Shown piece by piece: positions 5,304 through 62,687 of a DNA stretch of 64,000 bases. The notes beneath the pieces are model-generated. The model worked only from the letters and a program-made list of their open reading frames with translations, had not been told where the DNA came from and made no database searches. The stretch's first letter is position 1. Every line of letters starts with the position of its first letter. The translations under genes were made by a program, and so were the position numbers. The stretch is from an uncultured Bdellovibrionales bacterium. Lineage in GTDB: Bacteria; Patescibacteriota; Minisyncoccia; Moranbacterales; UBA2206. Location of the stretch: the NCBI GenBank assembly GCA_964406815.1, contig CAYOTC010000002.1, positions 7,906 to 71,905 on the forward strand. The letters are read 5' to 3'.

Positions 5304-7725
5304 ATTCTTTTGTTTTTGGAGTAAAGGAAAAAATTATTTTTATTATAAATACTATTAATCCTACCGAAATAATCGTTTTTAGGAGAAAAGCGATATAAGA
5401 AGGCAAGCCGGAAATAACCGTGGCAAATATTTTTTTTGTGGTTGGTTTTTGAGAAACATCAGATGACAAATCTCCAAAAAAGCTGTCAACCATATTTATT
5501 CTTATCGAATCGGAATATTGCTTCTCATAGAAATTATTATAGTTTACTTCATAGTATTTGTTAAGCGCTTTTTTAGTATTAACATCTTGAGTGTAGTTAG
5601 CTACTACGCTTACATCGTAAAATTCATCAGTATTTTTTCCAGGAAGAATAAGGACATTATCTTCAATTTGATAATTAGTTCCATCAACCAACTCATTATT
5701 AACATACCATAGGTAAGTGGTTTTTGCAGAGCTTCCACCGCTTGGAACGGCACGAAGCTTTATTTTGTTATTAGATAGAGCTTCAAAATTGTCCTTGTCG
5801 TAATCAGGATATTCCTTTCCGTCAAGATCTGTAAAATGACCCAAGAGTTTTCCTCGAGAAGTGTTTTGATCAGCAGATATTATTTTTATTTCCGGCTCAA
5901 CAATTGAAAAATATCTCGAAAGACTTATTTTCTCGCCATTATTCTTATTAATTGCTTCCAATGTAGCTGTGAAGTTTTTTCCAACTTCTTTTAATATTGG
6001 GAAAAATGAAAGATTCTTATAACTTTCATTATTTGTTCCGCAAATATCGGGAAATACGCATTCAATCGGTTTTCCATCTATTTTCCAGCTAAAATCGTTA
6101 AAATCGGAAGAATCGGAAATTTTTAATGCGATAAGTTCATTTTTATATACATTACAAATTGATTCTGGAAGAGCGTTTGTTTTTCCATTAGAATTTTCTT
6201 TTAGACAAATCTCTTTTTCATTTATAGTGGCATTGGAGAGATTTTCTGAAACAGAAGCAGTATATATTTTGAGATATTCGGAAGACGATATTATAGGGAG
6301 AATAGTTTCAGTAGTGCCCCTGTCGGTGCTTTTTTTTGATTTTGGATTAGTAACTGTGACCCGAGCTTTTATGTATTTATTATTCTTTATAATATCTTCC
6401 TTGAGGTTCATATTAAACTTGAAAGTGTTGATTCCAATTCCGCTTGTTTGGGATGCGTTTGGAAGCTTGCTTTTAATAAGGGCCGTTCCCCAGTCTGTTG
6501 GATTCATTGATTCGGCTAGAAAAATTTCCCATTGATAATTTAAATAGGATTGATCGGAAACATTAGAAACGGATGCAATAAAAGAAAGTTCGTCTCCAGC
6601 TTGTCCCTCCGGAGACGCATCGTTAATAGGTGAAGACGGACTACTAATCAGGCTAATATCTATTTTTGAGTTTATCCCAGTCTCTTCCGAAGGAGAGATA
6701 AAATTATACATAAGGCATTTTTTATTGAAATCGCTAACTTCTTTTGGGATAGTTTCACATTTATTTTTTAAAAGTGCCCACATTGTTTTATAGGAAGAAT
6801 CATATTCTTGGACTGTATCACTTGATATTCCTTCAACAACAACCCCTATCTCATCATCAGCTAAATATATCCAGGAAAATTCTGTAGCCCCAAGGCCAAT
6901 GATAGTAGCCTCATCAACTGTGCCGACCCCAGCCGTATCCGGATCGTCCGGATTAGATTGCCAGAAATGTTCTTTGGAAGCATCATTTTCATCAAAAAGA
7001 CCTTTTCCCATTTGGCCGCCATCTTTTCTTATATTTCCACTTGCATCCATTGAATAAGAGGAGGGAAATAAGTGGCCACAGTTAGGTAATTCTTTATCTT
7101 TGCCTGTTTTTACATCATGGTAAAAACAATATTCTTTTTTTCCGCCTTGATCAGCTCCTCCAGTAGGAGCTTTATAGGAATCTCCATCAGCAGAGAGTCC
7201 TTTACTTCTTCTTTCTTGGGAGGAATAAATCGCTCCATTTTTATCATACCCGCTGTTTACTCTTATTTGAGCCGCTTTTATTTTATAATCTTCTATATCA
7301 ACTATTTCGTCTTCATTAAGGTCGCAAATTTTTTTTATTCTATCTCTTGTTTCTTTACTGGCTTCTTTATAGGCGCTTTCTTTTTCGTATTTTTTGCATT
7401 CCGCATTACGCAGATACCAAGTAAAGTATAGATTTTTAAAATCATTCATAAAATACATCGGCATAGCTGTAGCAGTTATTTTTTCTCCCGGAATAGGATT
7501 TTTCGGACTAAAAACTAGGGAAACTTGGGGTGGATTTTTTTTGAAATTGGAAACATTAAATGTTTGTGCGGTATCTTTTACTGAATCTTTTTCTATACCT
7601 AAATCTTCAAAAATATCATTCATGGCTTCTCTTGGGTCTATCAAGCTACTACCAAGAGCAAAAACACCAGAAATGTTAGAGGTAAAAAAGTATACAAGGA
7701 AAACTGAAAGAATTATTTTTTTCAT
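5293..7725 (-). CDS. Large (810 aa) secreted surface protein with C-terminal TM anchor, hypothetical
   Basis: N-terminal signal (MKKIILSVFLVYFFTSNISGVFA) and C-terminal hydrophobic anchor (ISVGLIVFIIKIIF). Beta-rich, Ser/Asn-rich. Confidence 0.45.
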   Translation of the reverse strand: MKKIILSVFLVYFFTSNISGVFALGSSLIDPREAMNDIFEDLGIEKDSVKDTAQTFNVSNFKKNPPQVSLVFSPKNPIPGEKITATAMPMYFMNDFKNLYFTWYLRNAECKKYEKESAYKEASKETRDRIKKICDLNEDEIVDIEDYKIKAAQIRVNSGYDKNGAIYSSQERRSKGLSADGDSYKAPTGGADQGGKKEYCFYHDVKTGKDKELPNCGHLFPSSYSMDASGNIRKDGGQMGKGLFDENDASKEHFWQSNPDDPDTAGVGTVDEATIIGLGATEFSWIYLADDEIGVVVEGISSDTVQEYDSSYKTMWALLKNKCETIPKEVSDFNKKCLMYNFISPSEETGINSKIDISLISSPSSPINDASPEGQAGDELSFIASVSNVSDQSYLNYQWEIFLAESMNPTDWGTALIKSKLPNASQTSGIGINTFKFNMNLKEDIIKNNKYIKARVTVTNPKSKKSTDRGTTETILPIISSSEYLKIYTASVSENLSNATINEKEICLKENSNGKTNALPESICNVYKNELIALKISDSSDFNDFSWKIDGKPIECVFPDICGTNNESYKNLSFFPILKEVGKNFTATLEAINKNNGEKISLSRYFSIVEPEIKIISADQNTSRGKLLGHFTDLDGKEYPDYDKDNFEALSNNKIKLRAVPSGGSSAKTTYLWYVNNELVDGTNYQIEDNVLILPGKNTDEFYDVSVVANYTQDVNTKKALNKYYEVNYNNFYEKQYSDSIRINMVDSFFGDLSSDVSQKPTTKKIFATVISGLPSYIAFLLKTIISVGLIVFIIKIIFSFTPKTKEYGD

Positions 7726-7742: not shown

Positions 7743-8402
7743 TTATCTTAAATTAGCAATCAAATAAGCATCTAATATTATTATAGATAAAAATCCAGAA
7801 ATATACGAATATAAAATTGATTTGCTCAAATAGCTTGTTAATCCTCCAGTGGTGGCCAGGATTAGAAATGGAAGCATTTGCCAAGAAAATGATTTTGTTA
7901 ATAATAAAAATAAGGCAAAAACGATAAATTGTATCAAAATTGCAAAAGATCCAATTGATTTCTTGAGAGAAAAAAGCATAAATCCCCGGAAAAAATATTC
8001 ATTAAAGATAAGATATAAATTCACAAAAACAATTTCATAAAGAACAAACGTCCAGAATTTTGAAACAACAATTTCCGGTAGTATATAGTTTTTAGAAAAA
8101 TTAGAATATTTGAAGAGAAATAAAAAAATAATCAGATTTAAAATTAAGGCACTGATTGATAGGATTACTCCTGTTTTTTTGTTTCCTAAGCCGATGCCGT
8201 ATTCAGTAAGTTTCTCTTTGGTTATGAATTTTATAAAAAGTAGAGGCAATAATATGAGAAAAAACAATCCCTTTGTTAGGGCTTGAATTGATCCTGAAGA
8301 GGGGAAAAAAATAAACAATGCCAAAGAAAAAATAATCACAACTAAAGAAGCAATTTGTTTATTTTTTTCTTTATAAAAATTGAAATCTAATCCCGGATTC
8401 AT
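7743..8402 (-). CDS. Polytopic membrane protein, CPBP/Abi-like (possibly non-catalytic)
   Basis: 6-7 TMs. 'FNEYFFRGFM' resembles CPBP motif 1 (EExxxR/FRG), but the protein contains no His at all, so catalytic motifs 2 and 3 are absent. Confidence 0.3.
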   Translation of the reverse strand: MNPGLDFNFYKEKNKQIASLVVIIFSLALFIFFPSSGSIQALTKGLFFLILLPLLFIKFITKEKLTEYGIGLGNKKTGVILSISALILNLIIFLFLFKYSNFSKNYILPEIVVSKFWTFVLYEIVFVNLYLIFNEYFFRGFMLFSLKKSIGSFAILIQFIVFALFLLLTKSFSWQMLPFLILATTGGLTSYLSKSILYSYISGFLSIIILDAYLIANLR

Positions 8403-21226: not shown

Positions 21227-21391
21227 GCTTTCTTTGACAGCAAAGAAAGCGAATAGAAAGAAACTGTCGAACAGGCTCGCGCTGGCAGGATTATGACGAT
21301 TACTCACTAAAATTTACATTTCGCTTCGCTACATTTCAAAATTTTTGACGTTCGTAATCTGTAATCCGGAAACACGCTTCGCAAAGTTCGG
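21227..21391. repeat. Composite intergenic repeat, copy 1 (hairpin gctttctttg-acag-caaagaaagc ... acgcttcgcaaagttcgg)
   Basis: Shares the 5' 10-bp-stem hairpin and the 3' 'ACGCTTCGCAAAGTTCGG' end with the copies at 56524 and 58143. Contains a degenerate tgtc...caggattatgaca segment. Confidence 0.55.
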
Positions 21392-21426
21392 AAAAAACTA
21401 CCAATTACAAACTACCAGCTAATAAC

Positions 21427-29577: not shown

Positions 29578-31065
29578 ATGACTGATTTATTAAGAAAAAT
29601 TAAGGCAGAACTGCACGTCTGGTTTTTCTATGGTTTTATTTTGACTTTTTCTCTTACAATCAGGAAAGTTATTTGGCATTTTCCTCTTGAAGGATTATTT
29701 AATGAACATTCCGGACTGTATTTTTATTTATCAGATATTTTTCTGGTTGCGACACTTATTTTATGGGTTATATCATTATATAACAATAAAAAGGATAAAT
29801 TGTCAAGTTATAAGTTGTGGAAAACTATTCCTATCCACAGATTATCCATATTTTTACCGCTTATTTTAGCGGTTTTTTCATTTTTATCAATTTTCTGGTC
29901 AGAAAATAAGATCGTAGCTATTTTTAGATCAATTAAATTATTAGAACTATACCTTCTTTATATATACATTTATTTTCAAAATGTTCCACGTGGAACATTT
30001 TTAAAAAACATTTTAAGAATAATTATAGCCATTGGATTAATTCAATCAGTAATAGCTATTTGGCAATTTATTGTTCAGCATTCAATCGGACTTAGATTTT
30101 TTCAAGAAAGCATAATTTCACCATTTATTCCGGGAGTAGCTAAAGTTATCTTAAACGATAATATATTCATTCGTGCTTATGGGTTAATGCCACATCCGAA
30201 TATTTTGGGATGTTTCTTGCTTTTCTCGATTATTTTAACGATACTGTGCAAAAAATTGTTCCACGTGGAACAATTTAGATATTTATTAAAATTAGTTTTA
30301 TTTATTCAGTGTGTCGCCTTAATATTAACTTTCTCTAAATCTGCAATGATTGGCTTGATTATATCAATTATATATACTAATGTTCCACGTGGAACATTAG
30401 TAGAATCTAAAAATTTGTTTAAAGTGATTTTTAATAATATTAAAAAATTGTTCCACGTGGAACAATATAGGAGATGGATATTAAGCGGAGCAATTATTAT
30501 TGTATTAGTTTTTATTATAATTAAGCCAAATTTAAGCTCTTTATTTACTAAATCACTAGGGGAGCGTTTATTTTATTTAAATGTTTCACGTGGAACAATT
30601 TTGGATAATCCAGTTCTTGGTGTGGGAATAGGGCAGTTTGTAATGAATATTCCAAATTATGTTTCTAGTAGTTTTGAAGCGTTCCAATATCAGCCGGTTC
30701 ATAATGTATTCTTACTAATCTGGTCAGAGCTGGGGATTATTGGTTTAGGATTATTTATTATTTGGATCTGGAAAGTTATTTTTGATGATAGGAAAATGTT
30801 CCACGTCTGCCTGTCTGGTAGGCAGGTGGAACATTTAAAAGAAGATTATTATAAAGAAAATATTGTAATGGGGGATAGTAATACTATATTAGAACATAAT
30901 AATAATATACTGTCAATAAAGACGATAGAAGTTTATTTTGAAGCAATTCTGGTTGGATTTTTGTTTATAATGCTTTTCGATCATTATTTTTGGGATATCT
31001 GGCAAGGACAAATTATTTTTTGGCTAACGATGGGAATAATTGCTGGAATTAAATTTAGGCATTAA
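29578..31065 (+). CDS. O-antigen ligase / Wzy-like membrane protein interrupted in-frame by six palindromic insertions
   Basis: Polytopic membrane protein. C-terminal 'VLGVGIGQFVMNIPNY...QYQPVHNVFLLIWSELGIIGLGLF' resembles the Wzy_C core. The palindromes translate as NVPRGT / LFHVEQ in loop regions. Confidence 0.5.
   Translation: MTDLLRKIKAELHVWFFYGFILTFSLTIRKVIWHFPLEGLFNEHSGLYFYLSDIFLVATLILWVISLYNNKKDKLSSYKLWKTIPIHRLSIFLPLILAVFSFLSIFWSENKIVAIFRSIKLLELYLLYIYIYFQNVPRGTFLKNILRIIIAIGLIQSVIAIWQFIVQHSIGLRFFQESIISPFIPGVAKVILNDNIFIRAYGLMPHPNILGCFLLFSIILTILCKKLFHVEQFRYLLKLVLFIQCVALILTFSKSAMIGLIISIIYTNVPRGTLVESKNLFKVIFNNIKKLFHVEQYRRWILSGAIIIVLVFIIIKPNLSSLFTKSLGERLFYLNVSRGTILDNPVLGVGIGQFVMNIPNYVSSSFEAFQYQPVHNVFLLIWSELGIIGLGLFIIWIWKVIFDDRKMFHVCLSGRQVEHLKEDYYKENIVMGDSNTILEHNNNILSIKTIEVYFEAILVGFLFIMLFDHYFWDIWQGQIIFWLTMGIIAGIKFRH
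29978..30836. repeat. Six dispersed copies of the perfect palindrome (A)AATGTTCCACGTGGAACATT(T) or its AATTGTTCCACGTGGAACAATT variant
   Basis: Copies at ~29978-30002, 30253-30276, 30379-30398, 30446-30466, 30579-30600 (one mismatch) and 30794-30836 (split by a nested 21-nt hairpin). Spacing is irregular (68-275 bp). Confidence 0.7.
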
Positions 31066-55542: not shown

Positions 55543-56487
55543 TTAATTTTTTCTTCTTTTACTATGAAAAGCTTTGTGGACTTCTTTGAGTTGTTTGTTG
55601 GTGACATGGGTATATATCTGAGTAGTGGTGATTGATGAATGGCCAAGCATGGCCTGGACGCTTCTGATATCGGCGCCGTTCATCAATAAATCAGTCGCGA
55701 AAGAATGACGAAGCGTATGCGGATGGACATTTTTCACGATACCGGCCTTGGTCGCGTAATATTTGACGATTCTTTGAATTGAACGGGGAGTGAGGCGCAA
55801 ATCACTTCTCTTGTTTTTTGTCTGGCTATTTTTTGATTCGAACTTTTCCAAAGCTTTCTGATTTCTCACAAAAAGTGCTGGGTCAACATCAGTTCTTTTG
55901 GATAAATAACCTTCCAAAGCTTTTTTGGCGTCATCGGAAATAAAAACCACCCGGACTTTTCCGCCTTTCCCGCGGATGCTAAGTTCGAGATGATTAAGGT
56001 CGATGCGATCTCTATTGATGCTAGTCAGTTCCGAAACACGAAGTCCGGCTGAGAATAGAAGTTCCAAAATAGCCCGATCCCGAAGTGATTTCAAATCTGA
56101 TCCGGAGGCAGCTTCGAAAATTCGCTCCACCTCGTCATTTTCCAAAAATTCCACTTCCCGTTCCGGAGTTTTTCCGATTTCCACCCTTTCAGCCGGCAGA
56201 GCTTCAATATCTTTTTTGGCTAGGAATTTCAAAAAACTCCGAATAGCAATGACATAATATCCCTGGGTAGCCTTTTTGAGGTTTTTGCCGTTCTTGTCTT
56301 CATAACGGTTAAGAAATATGCGGAAGTTCTTAACGAGATTATCTTTAATTTCATGAGCAGTCTTGATTTTCGCCCAATTCAAAAAGACTTCCAGATAATG
56401 GTCATAGTTCTCGATAGTCTTTTGCGACCGACCTTTCTCAATTTCCATGTACTCGAGGAATTCGGTTTTGAGTTCTCTGATGTTCAT
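55543..56487 (-). CDS. xerD: Tyrosine site-specific recombinase (XerC/XerD-type integrase)
   Basis: 'RDRAILELLFSAGLRVSEL', 'HPHTLRHSFATDLLMNGADIRSVQAMLGHSSITTTQIYTHV' (R..HxxR..Y catalytic set), and an N-terminal SAM-like domain. Confidence 0.8.
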   Translation of the reverse strand: MNIRELKTEFLEYMEIEKGRSQKTIENYDHYLEVFLNWAKIKTAHEIKDNLVKNFRIFLNRYEDKNGKNLKKATQGYYVIAIRSFLKFLAKKDIEALPAERVEIGKTPEREVEFLENDEVERIFEAASGSDLKSLRDRAILELLFSAGLRVSELTSINRDRIDLNHLELSIRGKGGKVRVVFISDDAKKALEGYLSKRTDVDPALFVRNQKALEKFESKNSQTKNKRSDLRLTPRSIQRIVKYYATKAGIVKNVHPHTLRHSFATDLLMNGADIRSVQAMLGHSSITTTQIYTHVTNKQLKEVHKAFHSKRRKN

Positions 56488-56523
56488 GTATTTATTTTAC
56501 AACAAAATAGCTAAATATATTAG

Positions 56524-56682
56524 CCCCCTTTCTTTGGTAGCAAAGAAAGGGGGCGGAAAAGTTGCTGTCCGCACGGAATTATAGAACATAATTTATTGTC
56601 ATTCTGGCCTCCGAGCCGGAATCTAGAAAATATAGATCCTAAAACAAGTTCAGGATGACAGAATATACTTCGCAAAGTTCGG
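56524..56682. repeat. Composite intergenic repeat, copy 2, with embedded MITE-like element
   Basis: ccccctttctttg-gtagc-aaagaaaggggg ... ctgtccgcacggaattatagaa ... [MITE] ... acttcgcaaagttcgg. Confidence 0.55.
56597..56660. mobile_element. MITE-like palindromic element, intergenic copy C
   Basis: tgtcattctgg...ccggaatct...gatcctaaaacaagttcaggatgaca; shares termini and internal hairpins with the two copies inside uvrD. Confidence 0.6.
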
Positions 56683-57043
56683 TATTAAATACAAAATATA
56701 AAATAAAAAATTAGGCTTCATTAAGCCTTTTTTAAGATTATTGATTGACGAAGAGGGTATTTTTGACTATACTGTATGCAAGTTAAATTTTTAAGGCTTT
56801 CGACTGGAATGCCGACATATCCTAGAGAAAATCTAGGATTTTTATAGGCAAAATCCGGTTAAAGCCACAAGAAAGGCTTATTATATTAGTAAATTAATCT
56901 ATTCTCTGACACAGACCCTTATAGGACGCGCCAATCTGAAAAAACTGATCTTCCGTATATATGAAAAACAAAGAAATATAGTAGGGTTTATCAAGGAGCA
57001 TAGGACTATAAAAGTACTCCACGTTTTTCGCAACTATTCTTCA

Positions 57044-58066
57044 ATGATAGTTGTTATAGTCAGTGCCATCTTAGTTTCAGCTACCAATCTGGTCGCGGGA
57101 CACGATTCCAGTGGTTTTTTATTTGGCTATTTTGGAGCTGGGGATAATTATGAAAACCCGCTTGAGAATAAGATGTTTCTTAAATCCGGCTTTAAAACAA
57201 ATCTGGCGATGGCACCTCTTATTGAACCAAAATCTTCTTCTGACTCTCAAGACAGGGATAATTTTTCGGAAGACGGAGAAGTTTTTGTGCAAGGACAAGC
57301 TTTGATTTCCGGAAACAGTCCAGTTCTTCGGGATCCGGAAGAAGATGGAGGAGTTATTATTTATGAAGTCAAGGATGGAGACACGGTTAGTTCTATCGCT
57401 TCTAGTCACAGAATCAGTATGAACACAATTCTTTGGGCCAATGAAATAGAGAATGTTGATATGATTAAGCCTGGAGATGAAATATTTATCCTGCCAATTA
57501 CCGGACTTTCATATATAGTGAAAAACGGAGATAATATAGACAGTATTTGCAAACAATTCAAAGCTGACAAAGAAAAAGTCATTGCTTTCAACTATCTTCC
57601 GGCTAACGGAAAAGTCAAAGAGGGGCAGGAAATTATGATTCCGGAAGGACAAAAAGAAGTTCCAAGAAGAGTAATTAGTGGAACATCAAACATTGCTCTT
57701 CGTCAATATGAATCTTTCAGCAGTTCTTCGGGAAAGAGTACTCTGAGTGGAAAAGCCGGTGCCGGGCACCGTTTCCCTTATGGTTATTGTACTTGGTATG
57801 TGGCTTCAAGAAGATATATCCCGTGGTCGGGAAACGCCGGAACTTGGTTATATCGGGCGAAGTCGATGGGTTATGCCACCAGTAAAACTCCGACGGTCGG
57901 ATCGATTATGGTTTCATCGGAGTCGTGGTGGGGGCATGTTGCGATTGTTGAGAAAATCAGCGGAGATATGATAACTATTTCGGAAATGAATTATAAAGGT
58001 TGGGCGAAAAAATCCAGCCGGACTTTGAGTTCTAAGAGTCGGGTGATTAAGGGGTTTATTAGATAA
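57044..58066 (+). CDS. Peptidoglycan hydrolase with two LysM domains and a C-terminal CHAP domain
   Basis: LysM 'YEVKDGDTVSSIASSHRISMNTILWANEI' and 'YIVKNGDNIDSICKQFKADKEKVIAFNYL'. CHAP 'GYCTWYVASRR...WWGHVAIVEKI' (Cys...His). Confidence 0.7.
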   Translation: MIVVIVSAILVSATNLVAGHDSSGFLFGYFGAGDNYENPLENKMFLKSGFKTNLAMAPLIEPKSSSDSQDRDNFSEDGEVFVQGQALISGNSPVLRDPEEDGGVIIYEVKDGDTVSSIASSHRISMNTILWANEIENVDMIKPGDEIFILPITGLSYIVKNGDNIDSICKQFKADKEKVIAFNYLPANGKVKEGQEIMIPEGQKEVPRRVISGTSNIALRQYESFSSSSGKSTLSGKAGAGHRFPYGYCTWYVASRRYIPWSGNAGTWLYRAKSMGYATSKTPTVGSIMVSSESWWGHVAIVEKISGDMITISEMNYKGWAKKSSRTLSSKSRVIKGFIR

Positions 58067-58142
58067 ATATTTAGAAAACTTGAATATAAAAAATAGGCAC
58101 GTCTCGCAACGCGAGAGACGGCCTTTTTTGTTTTTCTTTACT

Positions 58143-58352
58143 AACTTTTCTTGTCAGCAAGAAAAGTTACAAAAGAACTGTCCGCACGAATTCGCTCAGT
58201 ATAAATTTTCGCTCATTCGTTCAAAATCCAGGTTGTTCCTTCGGCAACAAGACCGGATTTTTTCACTCATTCGCTCAATTTATAAACCTCGCGAATTAAG
58301 TGCGGAATTATAGAATGCAAATTCTGGTTCTAGAAATACGCTTCGCAAAGTT
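58143..58352. repeat. Composite intergenic repeat, copy 3 (longest; internal ~95-nt insert bounded by ccgcacgaattcgc/gcgaattaagtgcgg)
   Basis: aacttttcttg-tcagc-aagaaaagtt ... ctgtccgcacg ... gtgcggaattatagaatgcaaattctggttctagaaatacgcttcgcaaagtt. Contains a UUCG-capped hairpin atccaggttgttcc-ttcg-gcaacaagaccggat. Confidence 0.55.
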
Positions 58353-58381
58353 AGAGATAATATACAAAAAATAATATGTCT

Positions 58382-59542
58382 CTAATTGCTATCCAATGAG
58401 TCAGGAATAAATCCATTTTCTCTTAGAGTATGTATCATTCCGCGAAGAAGATAATTATTTGCGAAACCAATAGTATAAATTCTACCATTTTCTTTAAGTG
58501 GTATGAGCATTGATTTATCCTTCAGTCTTTTTAATATTCTAGAGCGTTGTTGCGGAGATTCTTCTCCAAGAATTTTTTCAAGATCTACTGATTTTATAGT
58601 CATTTCTTGATTTTTAATAATAGCAGAAAGAATCTGGTATTCGCGTTTTGTTATATGTTCTCGCTCTAGAGAATATGAGAGCATTGGCAATAAAATTACA
58701 TTGATTATATAACGCAAATCAAGAAGGTTATCTATTTTTTCTATTTCAGTTCGTAATCCTTCAAGAACATACAAGCACCATTTTAAAACATTGTCCTCTT
58801 GTTCTGAATCAGCTAAGGAAAGCATTTTATAATATTTATTGCGATCCATGCAAAATATTGCTGTTGGATTTAATATTCTTCCACTCTTTACTTGAAAGCT
58901 TTGTTTTATAAGAAGTGCATATGTAAACATTCTTACAAGTCTGCCATTTCCATTATCAAAGGGATGTATCCATGCCATTTTATGGTGAGATAGGGCAATT
59001 GCTAGCAAGTGATATTGTGTATCAAGTGGTTGATTAACAAATTCCATAAGTTCATCAAATAATTCTGGAACCTTAATCGATTCTGGAGGAATATGATTTG
59101 ATTTTTTTATAGATACGTTTATTGGTCGTAATATTCCGGGATATCGAGAGCCCTCTCCTGTAGGTGGGGGCGTTAGGTTATTAACAAGTATTTTATGTAT
59201 TTCTGAAATAAGAGCTCTGTCAAACTTGGTTTTTTTATTTACATTTCTATCAATAAAATCGATTGCTTTATCTATATTTTCAATCTCTTTAAATTTTTCA
59301 TCCACAACAATTTTCTTTGATCTATTTTCAATAACCTTTTCAATATATTCAGCTAATGTTGTGTTATTGCCCTCTATTCTTGCAGATCCTAGACTTTCTA
59401 GCATTTGAAATATATCTTTTATTTGAAAAAAGACATGAGGAGAAACTGGTCCGCCTAATTTTTTAACTCGAAGTTTTTCTAGCTCAAAAATTACACTAGT
59501 AAGCTTGCTGCCATATTTAGGGTCATAAATTTTTATGGACAT
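58382..59542 (-). CDS. fic: Fic/DOC-family protein (AMPylator-like)
   Basis: Canonical Fic motif 'HPFDNGNGRLVRM' (HPFx[DE]GNGR). Confidence 0.8.
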   Translation of the reverse strand: MSIKIYDPKYGSKLTSVIFELEKLRVKKLGGPVSPHVFFQIKDIFQMLESLGSARIEGNNTTLAEYIEKVIENRSKKIVVDEKFKEIENIDKAIDFIDRNVNKKTKFDRALISEIHKILVNNLTPPPTGEGSRYPGILRPINVSIKKSNHIPPESIKVPELFDELMEFVNQPLDTQYHLLAIALSHHKMAWIHPFDNGNGRLVRMFTYALLIKQSFQVKSGRILNPTAIFCMDRNKYYKMLSLADSEQEDNVLKWCLYVLEGLRTEIEKIDNLLDLRYIINVILLPMLSYSLEREHITKREYQILSAIIKNQEMTIKSVDLEKILGEESPQQRSRILKRLKDKSMLIPLKENGRIYTIGFANNYLLRGMIHTLRENGFIPDSLDSN

Positions 59543-59708
59543 ATAGGTTATTTAACATTTATAATAATTATTATTTAACATTATATGCCAAATTATAGCT
59601 AAGTCAAGGTGTTTTATTAAAGTGAAAATATTATGTTATTTATCAATGGGTAAGTTAATATTTATCATCATTCATTTTACTTATTTAACAAAAGTAGGTT
59701 TTGATGTA

Positions 59709-59741
59709 AGAAAAAATAGGTCTAACAAACCTATTTTTATT
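59709..59741 (-). terminator. Intrinsic terminator downstream of uvrD
   Basis: aataggt-ctaacaa-acctatt flanked by A- and T-runs. Confidence 0.45.
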
Positions 59742-59764
59742 AGAAGTTATATATAAATTCAAAT

Positions 59765-62044
59765 CTATATCTTTCTAAGCGGTGCGATGGAAGCGGAAAG
59801 TTTTTTGAGGCCCACTTTTTTGAAAGCGACTGTTATCATATCGCCTTGCGAAGATACGACTGTTCCATCGCCGAAGACTTCGTGGGAAACTTTTTCTCCA
59901 CCCTTATACTTAGTATCTTGTATTTTGTATCTAGTATTTTGTATAAAATCTTTAGTATCTTTATAACTTTCCATTTCTGATTTTAGATTTACTTGGAAAT
60001 TTGAAATTTGACATTTGTCATTTTGCAGAAGGTGTTCCGGAATGTCATCCAAGAAACGTGACGGCGCATTTATTTGCGTGGAGCCGAAGATGGTCCGTTC
60101 CATTGTGAAAAGCAAATATACTTTTTCTTTTGCTCGGGTGATGCCAACATACATGAGTCTTCTCTCTTCTTCCATTTCTTCTTCACTTAACATACTCCTC
60201 GAATGCGGCAGAATTCCTTCTTCGAGTCCTACGATGAAAACAAAACGGAACTCCAATCCTTTGGCGCTATGCATCGTCATCAAATGCACGGCTTCTTTGG
60301 TCTGGTCGATATTGTCGGTGTCAGAAACCAAAGATACTTCTTCCAAAAATAAATTCAATCCTTCTTCGCTTTCCTCGTCATATTTTTTCGCGACCGAAAG
60401 AAGTTCTTGGACGTTTTCATATCTCATCTGTCCTTCCTCTGATCCGTCCAAGAGAGTTTTTTCATATCCGCTTTCGATGAAAACTTTCTGGATAAAATCA
60501 GTGAGAGATAATTTTTTTCTGGCCTCCGACATTCGTCCGATGAATTCGCAGAATTTGGAAATGGAATCTATTTTAGTATCTTGTATTTTGTATTTAGTAT
60601 CTGGTATGTTTGAAATTTTAAGTCCGCAGGAAATAAAATCCAGATTATTATTTTTAGCCAAAGTGATCCATTTGGAAAATGTGGCATCGCCGATTCCGCG
60701 TTTCGGTTCATTGATGATGCGCTCAAGTGAAACTTCATCGGAGAAATTATTGATGAGTCGAAGATAGGCAATCAGATCTTTTATTTCTTTCCTTTGATAG
60801 AATTTGAGTCCGCCGATAATCCGATAGGGCAGAGAATATTTAAGTAGCGCTTCTTCGATCACGCGGGATTGCGCGTTGGTCCGATATAGTATTACGAAAT
60901 CGGAAAGTCTACATTTGTCATTCCGGATTTGGTCCGGAATCTCTTTGGATCCTGAAACAAGTTCAGGATGACCTAGTCTTATTATTTCTTTCATTATATA
61001 TTCCGCTTCGTCTCTTTCATTGTCGGCTTCATAGGAAACCAAGAGATGGCCATCATTTTTTTCCGTCCAGACTTTTTTGTCTTTGCGGTTTACGTTTTTT
61101 GAAATGACGCCATAGGCCGCGTCCAGAATCGGCTGGGTCGAACGATAGTTCTGCTCCAGTTTGATGACGTGCGCCTCCGGATAATCTTTTTCGAAATTCA
61201 AAATGTTTCTGACATCGGCGCCGCGGAAAAGATAGATGCTTTGCCAATCGTCTCCGCAAACCCAGATGTTTTTGTGGGCGTCGCTGAGCATTTTGACGAG
61301 AATATACTGCGCGCGGTTGGTGTCTTGATATTCGTCCACCATAATATAGCGGAAAATATTTTGATATTTCTTGAGCACTTCGGGATAGGTTTCAAAAATT
61401 TTCACGGTGAGCATTATAATATCGTCGAAATCCAACGCGTTATTTTCTTTGAGCTTTTTTTGATAGGCGGTAAAAACTTTGGAAACCACTTCTTCCCAAT
61501 ATCCGCCGACCATCTCGCCAAATCTTTTGGCATCAATCAATTCATTCTTGGCTTTGGAAATCGCTCCCAGGATTCCTTTGGGATTGAACTGGGTGGTGTC
61601 GATTTCCAATTCCCGCATAGTTTTTTTTATGAGGGCCAGCTGGTCAAGAGAATCGAAAATATTGAAACTGCTTTTATAGCCGATCTTTTCAATCTCACTG
61701 CGAAGAATTTTTACACAAATGGCGTGGAAAGTGCCGATATGTGGCAGGTTGTACCTGTCATTCCGGACTTGGTCCGGAATCTCCTGAGATCCTGAAACAA
61801 GTTCAGGATGACAATTTAATAGTTCCGCCACTCGCTCTTTCATTTCACCGGCGGCTTTGTTGGTGAAAGTCACCGCCAGGATGTTTCCCGGACGGACATT
61901 CTTTTCACGGATAAGATACGCCACTCGATGGGTGAGCGCCCGGGTTTTTCCCGAACCGGCGCCGGCAATGACCAAAACCGGCCCTTCGGTCGTAATGACA
62001 GCTTCACGCTGAGGATCATTAAGTTTTTTCAAGATTTCATCCAT
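59765..62044 (-). CDS. pcrA: UvrD/PcrA-family ATP-dependent DNA helicase carrying four in-frame repeat insertions
   Basis: Walker A 'AGAGSGKT', 'VDEYQDTN', 'GDDWQSIYLFRGA', 'NYRSTQPIL', 'MTMHSAKGLEFRFVFIVGLEEG', 'VGITRAKEKVYLL', and the C-terminal 'GDGTVV' domain. Confidence 0.9.
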   Translation of the reverse strand: MDEILKKLNDPQREAVITTEGPVLVIAGAGSGKTRALTHRVAYLIREKNVRPGNILAVTFTNKAAGEMKERVAELLNCHPELVSGSQEIPDQVRNDRYNLPHIGTFHAICVKILRSEIEKIGYKSSFNIFDSLDQLALIKKTMRELEIDTTQFNPKGILGAISKAKNELIDAKRFGEMVGGYWEEVVSKVFTAYQKKLKENNALDFDDIIMLTVKIFETYPEVLKKYQNIFRYIMVDEYQDTNRAQYILVKMLSDAHKNIWVCGDDWQSIYLFRGADVRNILNFEKDYPEAHVIKLEQNYRSTQPILDAAYGVISKNVNRKDKKVWTEKNDGHLLVSYEADNERDEAEYIMKEIIRLGHPELVSGSKEIPDQIRNDKCRLSDFVILYRTNAQSRVIEEALLKYSLPYRIIGGLKFYQRKEIKDLIAYLRLINNFSDEVSLERIINEPKRGIGDATFSKWITLAKNNNLDFISCGLKISNIPDTKYKIQDTKIDSISKFCEFIGRMSEARKKLSLTDFIQKVFIESGYEKTLLDGSEEGQMRYENVQELLSVAKKYDEESEEGLNLFLEEVSLVSDTDNIDQTKEAVHLMTMHSAKGLEFRFVFIVGLEEGILPHSRSMLSEEEMEEERRLMYVGITRAKEKVYLLFTMERTIFGSTQINAPSRFLDDIPEHLLQNDKCQISNFQVNLKSEMESYKDTKDFIQNTRYKIQDTKYKGGEKVSHEVFGDGTVVSSQGDMITVAFKKVGLKKLSASIAPLRKI
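59899..59960. repeat. AT-rich 'tagtatcttgtattttgtat' tandem repeat, copy 1, in-frame in the uvrD 3' region
   Basis: Encodes 'NTRYKIQDTKYK'. Shares a ~26-nt core with the copy at 60572-60612. Confidence 0.5.
60572..60612. repeat. AT-rich 'tagtatcttgtattttgtat' repeat, copy 2, in-frame in uvrD
   Basis: Encodes 'PDTKYKIQDTKID'. Confidence 0.5.
60916..60973. mobile_element. MITE-like 58-bp palindromic element, copy B, in-frame inside uvrD
   Basis: tgtcattccggatttggtccggaatctctttggatcctgaaacaagttcaggatgac; encodes 'HPELVSGSKEIPDQIRNDK' in the helicase. Confidence 0.65.
61756..61813. mobile_element. MITE-like 58-bp palindromic element, copy A, in-frame inside uvrD
   Basis: tgtcattccggacttggtccggaatctcctgagatcctgaaacaagttcaggatgaca; encodes 'HPELVSGSQEIPDQVRNDR'. 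Confidence 0.65.
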
Positions 62045-62147
62045 AACTTAATCATTATAACATGACAGTAATTTTTCGTGATATGCCTAAGGTTGACTTT
62101 TTCTAGGGGGGGGTAAAATTGCTAATATAAACAATAATTTTAAAAAA

Positions 62148-62687
62148 ATGAACAAAGAAGCATATTTTCCAGATCCATTTGAGGCTAGAAAGGCTTGGGA
62201 TATGATGAGCGAAGAAGAAAAAGCTATGAGTAGAGAAAAAGGAAAAGAAAAAGTAGATAATAAATTAAGAGAAGCTATAATTAAAAATCCAGATTTGGTC
62301 CTTGATAATATGGGAGAAAGTAATTCGAACAAAAAACTTGATAAGTTTTATGCTCAACTAATGAAAGAATCAGGCATAGATGATTTCTATTTAACATCAT
62401 CTAATATGGCTTATATTAGAAAAAAAAGTAGAGGATTGAATGTTACTGAAATAAGATTTTGGGATTCTTTGCCCGAAATAGAAGGTGATGTGCATTTTTC
62501 TGATAGTGGTACCGGAAAAAAAATAGCCGATTGCTTAGGAAATATGGGTAATGTTCTAGAATTTTTTGAAAATGATGATGAGTACAACATTGAAACTGTG
62601 TATAAAAAAGAGTTTAGTGGTTGTTCAGAGGAAGAATGTAAGAGAGGAATTGTATATCATATAACAAAGAAAACTAAAGAGCAATAA
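62148..62687 (+). CDS. Hypothetical cytoplasmic protein
   Basis: 179 aa, charged, no motif recognised. Confidence 0.4.
   Translation: MNKEAYFPDPFEARKAWDMMSEEEKAMSREKGKEKVDNKLREAIIKNPDLVLDNMGESNSNKKLDKFYAQLMKESGIDDFYLTSSNMAYIRKKSRGLNVTEIRFWDSLPEIEGDVHFSDSGTGKKIADCLGNMGNVLEFFENDDEYNIETVYKKEFSGCSEEECKRGIVYHITKKTKEQ

Follow-up and report, generated by a model that had tools for sequence, protein, structure and literature searches.

The window analyzed here, a 64-kb stretch of contig CAYOTC010000002.1 to whose first letter all positions refer, belongs, going by the source names of homologs of the helicase described below, to a Candidatus Moranbacteria bacterium, a member of the candidate phyla radiation (CPR/Patescibacteria). 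It contains an intact gene for a PcrA/UvrD-type superfamily 1 helicase that carries a short palindromic DNA element in frame at two places, and a third copy of the element is intergenic (Table 1). In our interpretation, which appears probable as a whole and together with the mechanism proposed below, the element is a compact inverted heterodimer of two repetitive extragenic palindromic (REP) hairpins with TGTC/CGTC tags, non-autonomous and similar to the REP doublets forming hairpins (REPINs).

The helicase matches Geobacillus PcrA (1pjr) over its full length (E = 2.8e-193) and contains the Pfam domains UvrD-helicase, UvrD_C and PcrA_UvrD_tudor. All motif residues that are invariant among 114 orthologs are present in it. 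An AlphaFold2 model built from the ortholog alignment has a mean predicted local distance difference test score (pLDDT) of 77, and its top match in the PDB is again PcrA 1pjr. The gene order S15-NYN-PcrA-LysM/CHAP-XerC is kept in relatives, as seen in nine related contigs.

Table 1. Positions of the helicase gene and of the copies of the palindromic element in the window
Feature	Position	Strand	Description
PcrA/UvrD-type superfamily 1 helicase gene, intact	59765..62044	minus	759 aa; two in-frame elements inside
Copy A, inverted heterodimer of two TGTC-tagged REP hairpins	61756..61813	minus	58 nt; aa 78-96/97, CHPELVSGSQEIPDQVRND(R)
Copy A, REP unit 1	61789..61813	minus	tag TGTC, stem ATCCTGAA/TTCAGGAT, loop CTTGT, tail CTC
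Copy A, REP unit 2	61756..61780	plus	tag TGTC, stem ATTCCGGAC/GTCCGGAAT, loop TTG
Copy B, REP heterodimer matching copy A	60916..60973	minus	58 nt; aa 358-376/377, GHPELVSGSKEIPDQIRND(K); unit 1 tag GGTC
Copy B, REP unit 1	60949..60973	minus	stem ATCCTGAA, loop CTTGT, tail CCA
Copy B, REP unit 2	60916..60940	plus	ATTCCGGA(T) ... (G)TCCGGAAT
Copy C, intergenic dimer	56597..56660	unassigned	64 nt; XerC-like recombinase gene on one side, LysM/CHAP gene on the other

A preliminary description of this DNA, made from the sequence alone, reported three near-identical copies with TGTCAT...ATGACA ends and two hairpins each. All three are present at the positions given in Table 1, the third in intergenic DNA, and near-identity applies to the two genic copies (93% identity over 57 nt). 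Copy C is a decaying copy: its unit 1 has a variant stem, ATTCTGGC/GCCGGAAT, unlike the first hairpin of the genic copies, with one mismatch per stem and a longer spacer. The ends are as described except in copy B, which terminates in ATGACC. The hairpin GTCATCCTGAACTTGTTTCAGGATC is found without mismatches at 61788-61812 and 60948-60972 and with one mismatch at 56635-56659, and the second hairpin matches at two positions only, 61756-61781 and 60916-60941; the number of hairpin matches expected from shuffled sequences is 0.00. A scan of the window for tagged hairpins recovered these three dimers and no others of this type. Three of the six reading frames through the element are open, and copies A and B lie on the sense strand of the helicase gene in a common frame, encoding (C/G)HPELVSGS(Q/K)EIPDQ(V/I)RND.

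When folded as a single strand, each genic copy forms two independent hairpins with stems of 8-9 bp and loops of 3-5 nt. The predicted free energy is -14.8 kcal/mol for copy A (z -3.8) and -14.2 kcal/mol for copy B (z -4.0), whereas copy C folds no better than shuffled sequences (z -0.6 to -1.3). Each half consists of an unpaired TGTC tag, an 8-9 bp stem that opens with A-T and T-A pairs, a 3-5 nt loop and a short tail. The two halves oppose each other across a 7-nt spacer with their tags outward and have unlike stems (ATCCTGAA versus ATTCCGGA), which gives the layout of TGTC, 8-bp AT-initiated stem, 5-nt loop and tail, then the spacer, then the same arrangement reverse-complemented with the other stem.

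Two other candidates were examined and rejected. A small ribozyme or three-way junction of the hammerhead kind, suggested by the TGTCAT/ATGACA ends and the two hairpins, does not agree with the independent folding of the hairpins and the lack of a conserved core. A scan of positions 56300-62300 against Rfam at E <= 10 assigned no family to the element, and the sole notable match in this region, RF03531, falls on conserved helicase coding sequence. A possible fourth, partial copy at about 60005-60050 (IPEHLLQNDKCQ) turned out to encode DDIPEHL, a native conserved PcrA sequence according to the ortholog consensus and the PcrA alignment; a 13-nt match to the element, GAATGACAAATGT, remains in this region.

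The hairpin is not confined to this gene or to this genome. An exact-match scan for the 25-mer hairpin, which covered one genome per species and for which counts are those of the matches listed, yielded at least 120 loci from as many species genomes of many phyla. The hosts include Sphingomonadales, other Alphaproteobacteria, Bacteroidota, several CPR lineages, Treponema, Heliobacteriaceae, Gastranaerophilales/Melainabacteria, Elusimicrobia, Dependentiae, Sulfurovaceae (an exact match in genome L011) and one metagenome-assembled genome of Rickettsiaceae. Most of the 133 listed matches are paired, over a distance of 7-70 nt, with an inverted partner: a second copy of the hairpin or one with a variant stem, for example ATGCTGAA, ACCCCGAA, ATGCCGAA or ATTCCGGA. 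About 20 of the 133 fall within long open frames. The copies of sphingomonads carry the tail CCA. Closer to the window, intergenic compact dimers of 58-73 nt occur in syntenic contigs of Moranbacteria. The 17 kb of contig L202 contain five of them, and a count of dimers of any location gave six, whereas the syntenic contigs L203, L121 and L124 have none.

An exhaustive HMMER search with 30 residues around the first insert detected the dimer peptide in an APH/EcKL-type kinase (three copies) and in a DUF1156 DNA methyltransferase (two copies), and the monomer peptide, in seven copies, in a beta-barrel protein of the outer membrane; short spurious open reading frames (ORFs) across REP clusters were matched as well. 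With copies in intergenic DNA and in unrelated proteins, the element is a repeated DNA element with its own dynamics and not a protein sequence of this lineage, as the preliminary description had held.

Arrangements other than the dimer were also observed. In some genomes the REP unit forms head-to-tail tandem arrays, for example repeated GTCATGCTGAACTTGTTTCAGGATCTATC on the minus strand of contig L112 (Gastranaerophilales) from about position 7807. Gene callers turn such arrays into small ORFs or into repeat tracts of real proteins (P0126, P0123, P0135), as in the case of seven SHPELVSGSA repeats in the beta-barrel protein. On L205, a related contig of Moranbacteria, positions 2534-2556 and 5304-5380 hold TGTC-tagged hairpins with the stems ATTCCCGC/GCG(G/T)GAAT and ATCCTCGC/GCGGGGAT; judging by back-translation, they would encode a peptide of the SFPRKRES type, as published for the CGTC-1 repeats (= RPE-6) of R. 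conorii.

Comparison with ortholog P0003, which has the same dimer at both sites of its PcrA gene, demonstrates that conservation of the element acts on nucleotides. At the protein level the two helicases differ in 30% of conserved columns (67% identity in BLASTP), and their genes agree in 70% of all DNA positions and in 49% of third codon positions. The elements, in contrast, are 96% and 91% identical, with 89% identity at third positions, so that synonymous sites of the element are far better conserved than those of the host gene. This difference speaks for recent copying or a constraint at the nucleotide level (DNA or RNA) rather than for selection on the peptide; of the two explanations that the preliminary description offered for the similarity of the encoded peptides, recent transposition is compatible in the sense of recent copies, and peptide selection is not supported. 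In P0003 the two copies do not differ from one another, and at one loop position they have T instead of the C seen in both genic copies of the window. This pattern points to a master sequence in each genome, apparently kept by recent copying or gene conversion.

In the alignment with PcrA 1pjr, gaps of 18 and 15 residues coincide exactly with copies A and B, respectively. The first site follows the motif Ia helix and precedes GTFH; the second is directly before LYRTNAQSR. The preliminary description put both elements in frame in loops and had each adding about 20 residues. The placement agrees with the alignment and with the structural model, and the element does code for 19-20 residues; relative to PcrA and insert-free orthologs, however, the protein is longer by a net 15-18. 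In the AlphaFold2 model, insert 1 is a coil with pLDDT below 50 (residues 82-96), flanked by helix 62-77 and strand 102-105, and insert 2 (residues 361-380, pLDDT 56-65) is a coil or short helix that follows helix 343-358 and precedes strand 383-387. As modeled, both inserts are in poorly ordered loops, presumably at the helicase surface, outside the conserved motifs of an otherwise fully conserved enzyme.

Among the orthologs, the length of site 2 (query residues 356-380) is bimodal, with 7-12 residues in 91 of 114 proteins and 20-32 in the remaining 23. Site 1 is more variable and has a basal state of 6-9 residues. Across the Moranbacteria orthologs P0002-P0120, this site (equivalent to window positions 61745-61830) is hypervariable and ranges from 6 to 43 residues. 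Its recurring peptides, which derive from repeats, include PSPSPYKGEG (the CCCTCTCC...GGAGAGGG hairpin), PSPQPSPDYGRGG, NANTRIDANDAN (GATGCGAAT repeats) and the NLRM.SES..../FVDSH types.

REPs with TGTC or CGTC tags are present at site 2 in the query, P0003/P0006/P0028, P0078, P0075, P0043 and P0104. These carriers are scattered among the orthologs, and their nearest relatives are empty or have other inserts; for example, P0075 differs from its empty neighbor P0108 in 10.8% of conserved columns. The occupants of site 2 are themselves diverse. P0006 and P0078 share unit 1 and have different partner units, P0043 carries a CGTC-tagged variant, the unit 1 loop of P0028 includes a nested GC-rich hairpin, and P0030 and P0024 have unrelated palindromes. 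In one clade with PcrA genes of 77-85% DNA identity, wholly different repeats stand between identical flanks at each site. Site 1 is occupied by a TGTC-REP dimer, GATGCGAAT-type repeats or the CCCTCTCC...GGAGAGGG hairpin, and site 2 either by a TGTC-REP dimer or by one REP in reverse orientation, in which another hairpin may be nested. Judged by distances (UPGMA and lists of nearest neighbors) and not by a proper phylogeny, the same two loops seem to have been filled repeatedly and independently in Moranbacteria.

All REP-bearing PcrA alleles have the element in one orientation and read it in the same one of its three open frames, the hydrophilic one. By our own estimate, the chance of such a common frame is about (1/3)^7 for eight independent events that choose at random among the open frames, and their independence may be incomplete. 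The bias may reflect either compatibility of the hydrophilic peptide with the protein or strand-specific insertion.

A more far-reaching suggestion is that the two loops are fixed landing pads, where one palindromic element gives way to another, also of a different family, like cassettes on short time-scales. We regard it as a tentative and rather unlikely idea; it derives from the presence of different palindromes at exactly the same codon positions of PcrA genes that are about 85% identical in DNA and from the REP that has another hairpin nested in its loop. If true, it would mean that CPR bacteria practice hairpin-targeting insertion or template switching, palindrome into palindrome. Given the invariance of the 25-mer across phyla, such a process would depend on a widely conserved host enzyme, and it would explain how CGTC REPs spread without a transposase. 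The nested palindromes themselves were observed at positions 2521-2599 of contig L204 (site 2 of P0028) and in the gene at 10001-12265 of L205 (site 2 of P0030). The nested GC-rich hairpin is CTTGCCTGTCTCGCCGGCGGGCGGG or CTTGCCTCATCGGCAGGCAAG and is situated within the loop of a REP unit that is itself inside PcrA.

The closest published counterpart of the element is the group of CGTC-tagged REPs (families CGTC-1 to -4) described by Di Nocera, De Gregorio and Rocco (BMC Genomics 2013; PMC3733652). These have the tag CGTC with variants TGTC and CCTC, a stem of 8-9 bp that almost invariably starts with A-T, a loop of 4-5 nt and a short tail with the consensus CCA; they occur mostly as inverted dimers, often heterodimers, and lack a dedicated transposase (PMC3733652). 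The units of the window agree with this in tag (TGTC in five of six, GGTC in one, and CGTC in ortholog P0043) and in stem, where the folds support ATCCTGAA/TTCAGGAT with loop CTTGT and ATTCCGGA(C)/(G)TCCGGAAT with a loop of 3-5 nt. The consensus tail CCA is seen in unit 1 of copy B, and the other units have CTC or CTA. Inverted heterodimers make up all three copies of the window and 12 more in relatives.

The intragenic habit is shared as well. Many GTAG and CGTC REPs are in frame within genes, including UvrD/REP helicases, uvrA, polA and recBCD, and intragenic REPs are concentrated in replication and repair genes; the dimers encode 20-30 residues, and sometimes two are found in one ORF (PMC3733652). 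The supplementary table of that paper gives CGTC units within UvrD/REP helicases of Rhodopseudomonas palustris and Kosmotoga olearia, as well as a CGTC-2 unit in Sulfurovum SUN_0512 encoding RHSELVSGS, nearly identical to CHPELVSGS here. In-frame REP dimers were therefore already known, also in UvrD/Rep helicases, contrary to the earlier opinion that such insertions are rarely reported outside Rickettsia. The element described here differs in its very compact dimer (a 7-nt spacer and 58 nt in total), in its TGTC tags, in its host, since the CPR/Patescibacteria are not among the five phyla given for CGTC repeats, and in the recurrent filling and replacement at two fixed PcrA loops, which PMC3733652 does not describe. 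A search of full-text literature for the hairpin sequence or the peptide returned no relevant report, and the top-ranked full-text matches for REP- or MITE-type repeats (MITE, miniature inverted-repeat transposable element) in Patescibacteria/Parcubacteria included none. What is new is the CPR as a host phylum of this REP superfamily; the spread of the 25-mer over many phyla, the fine turnover at the two PcrA sites and the synonymous-site evidence for conservation at the nucleotide level also go beyond the literature consulted.

The comparison with Rickettsia palindromic elements (RPEs) made in the preliminary description was apt, since RPE-6 and RPE-4 of R. conorii are CGTC-1 and CGTC-4, respectively, and so belong to the same superfamily of tagged REPs (PMC3733652). 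As summarized in PMC10969869 and PMC3733652 from Ogata et al. (2000/2002), RPEs are palindromic repeats that occupy functional genes in frame, where the protein fold can accommodate them, as copies A and B do here. In the same summaries, the classical in-frame RPE-1 is of a different kind, with about 150 bp, 45-50 residues and another sequence family, and the RPE families appear as defined within Rickettsia. What links the element here to them is the published superfamily assignment. The published R. conorii peptides SFPRKRES and WIPWSNHGMT are also unlike the CHPELVSGS peptide (PMC3733652).

Similarity to two further classes is partial. With REPINs and GTAG REPs moved by REP-associated tyrosine transposases (RAYT, TnpA_REP), the element shares its non-autonomous nature, the lack of target-site duplication and the behavior expected of a within-genome master sequence, but its tag is TGTC and not GTAG, and its hairpin hardly varies from phylum to phylum, in contrast to the lineage-specific REPIN/RAYT pairs. 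In the REPIN/RAYT system a cognate single-copy RAYT gene (HUH/Y1) is found in the genome, usually flanked by REPs. Here, a motif scan of the window detected no HUH/Y1-motif (RAYT) ORF, and among the 120 listed loci of the 25-mer there is one RAYT-like ORF, 5 kb from the hairpin. Bacterial MITEs such as Correia/NEMIS, RUP, ERIC and Nezha are likewise small, non-coding and multi-copy, with inverted ends and occasional in-frame fusions; the present element differs from them in the lack of a target-site duplication, in the lack of a parent insertion sequence (IS) in the window and near the listed loci, and in termini that are self-folding tagged hairpins, also found as singletons.

We suggest the following mechanism for the spread of the element. 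Copies would be made from, or homogenized against, a within-genome master by a DNA process that acts in trans and recognizes the hairpins, possibly with single-stranded DNA as the substrate, by analogy with REP/RAYT and IS200/IS605. Insertions would land widely, and in an essential gene the survivors would be only those copies that are in frame, free of stops and in a permissive surface loop, read in the open hydrophilic frame. Translation would then simply turn the element into 19-20 residues of flexible loop, from which no function is required. Insertion would hit these two loops again and again, and their occupants would be swapped on short time-scales.

Several points weigh against this interpretation. 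The mobilizing enzyme and the insertion chemistry are inferred rather than observed, and the source genome is covered over 64 kb, where there are three dimers. The notion of insertion comes from comparison with diverged orthologs, among which no clean pair of filled and empty junctions was recovered; when an intergenic dimer of L202 was aligned with syntenic relatives in search of such a junction, the middle of the spacer was unalignable. An element of 58 nt cannot by itself keep the frame, about five loop residues seem to have been replaced, and the compensating event is unexplained. Translation through the element is deduced from the open frame. The uniform orientation and frame, together with different palindromes at an identical position, hint at a site or strand specificity beyond a passive filter, and the proposed mechanism leaves unexplained both the invariance of the hairpin across phyla and the reuse of the same codon positions.

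Among other explanations, the one that survives best is that the hairpins are kept in pcrA for a function, either at the mRNA level (stability, pausing or attenuation), as a protein-binding DNA site or as a loop modulating the helicase. It would account for stems that are intact in the genic copies and decayed in the intergenic one, for conserved synonymous sites and for the orientation common to all carriers, and it would fit the published observation that intragenic REPs are overrepresented in genes for replication and repair, UvrD/Rep among them (PMC3733652). We nevertheless consider it improbable, as 91 of the 114 orthologs have no insert at site 2, PcrA genes of about 85% identity carry unrelated palindromes and peptides at both sites, the same element is found in unrelated proteins and in intergenic DNA, and the modeled loops are predicted to be disordered and outside the conserved motifs.

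Even less probable is a classical MITE, that is, a deletion derivative of an IS moved by cut-and-paste by a DDE transposase that recognizes the TGTCAT terminal inverted repeats. The short length, the non-coding nature of the element alone, the inverted termini and the multiple copies suit this idea, and the preliminary description had called the element MITE-like. However, no consistent target-site duplication was seen across 15 dimers, whose flanks are AT-rich and show 0-4 nt of chance identity. No transposase or IS was found in the 64-kb window, and no transposase, IS or any other recurrent protein family recurs within 1.5 kb of the hairpin at the 120 listed loci. Single hairpin units occur alone and in arrays, and the partner hairpin is freely exchanged between copies. 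The supposed terminal repeats are themselves the two tagged REP hairpins, an architecture whose published class is a REP without a dedicated transposase (PMC3733652), so that the label was not upheld.

An ordinary lineage-specific loop of the helicase, palindromic by chance and duplicated within the gene, could explain two copies in one gene and one frame but is refuted by the existence of copies outside it, the third copy of the window being intergenic, and is hardly tenable in view of the identical hairpin in many phyla, the same peptide in unrelated proteins, the third-position identity of 89% versus 49% for the gene and the patchy distribution among orthologs.

If the element is a tagged REP dimer, as we prefer to think, the superfamily behind the palindromes within Rickettsia proteins also colonizes genes that are essential to ultra-small CPR bacteria. 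Conserved proteins of these bacteria often have unexplained insertions, and for annotation this would mean that hydrophilic inserts of 15-25 residues of this kind in CPR proteins are repeat-derived and not lineage-specific functional motifs. Since 2013 it has been open how CGTC REPs move, as they have no associated transposase. The PcrA orthologs of Moranbacteria, with two fixed sites that are filled in some alleles, empty in others and differently filled in yet others, would provide a natural series from which the movement of these repeats could be worked out.

Other features of the PcrA gene were also noted. In some Moranbacteria orthologs (P0010, P0076, P0088, P0097, P0100 and P0107; 1096-1128 aa), it is the host of inteins, with the intein/Hint domains PF14890 and PF01079. 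In the window, the gene contains two arrays of five 7-nt units (ATACNNN), at 60576-60610 and 59913-59947, with the minus strand as sense, which encode IPDTKYKIQDTK (aa ~479-490) and NTRYKIQDTKYK (aa ~703-714, in the C-terminal linker); these are the only two places in the window with at least three such heptads. Orthologs have peptides similar to TKYQIPNTKYQI or YKLQTTSYKL at site 1 and also in the 2B loop and the linker.

A 386-aa Fic/DOC-domain gene (58382-59542, minus strand) stands between PcrA and LysM/CHAP and is missing from the synteny of the nine related contigs. A motif around ACGCTTCGCAAAGTTCGG has three intergenic copies in the window, at 21354-21413, 56645-56704 and 58318-58377, one of which adjoins REP copy C. 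Finally, the gene for a 495-aa membrane protein similar to Wzy_C/O-antigen ligases (29578-31065, plus strand) includes five in-frame perfect 16-bp palindromes TGTTCCACGTGGAACA, with 0.02 expected, at positions 29982, 30257, 30381, 30449 and 30582, which read NVPRGT or LFHVEQ depending on the frame. They constitute a second, unrelated palindrome family in frame in this genome. A sixth copy of the TGTTCCACGTGGAACA type near the C-terminus (MFHVCLSGRQVEHL) is apparently split by a nested GC-rich hairpin.

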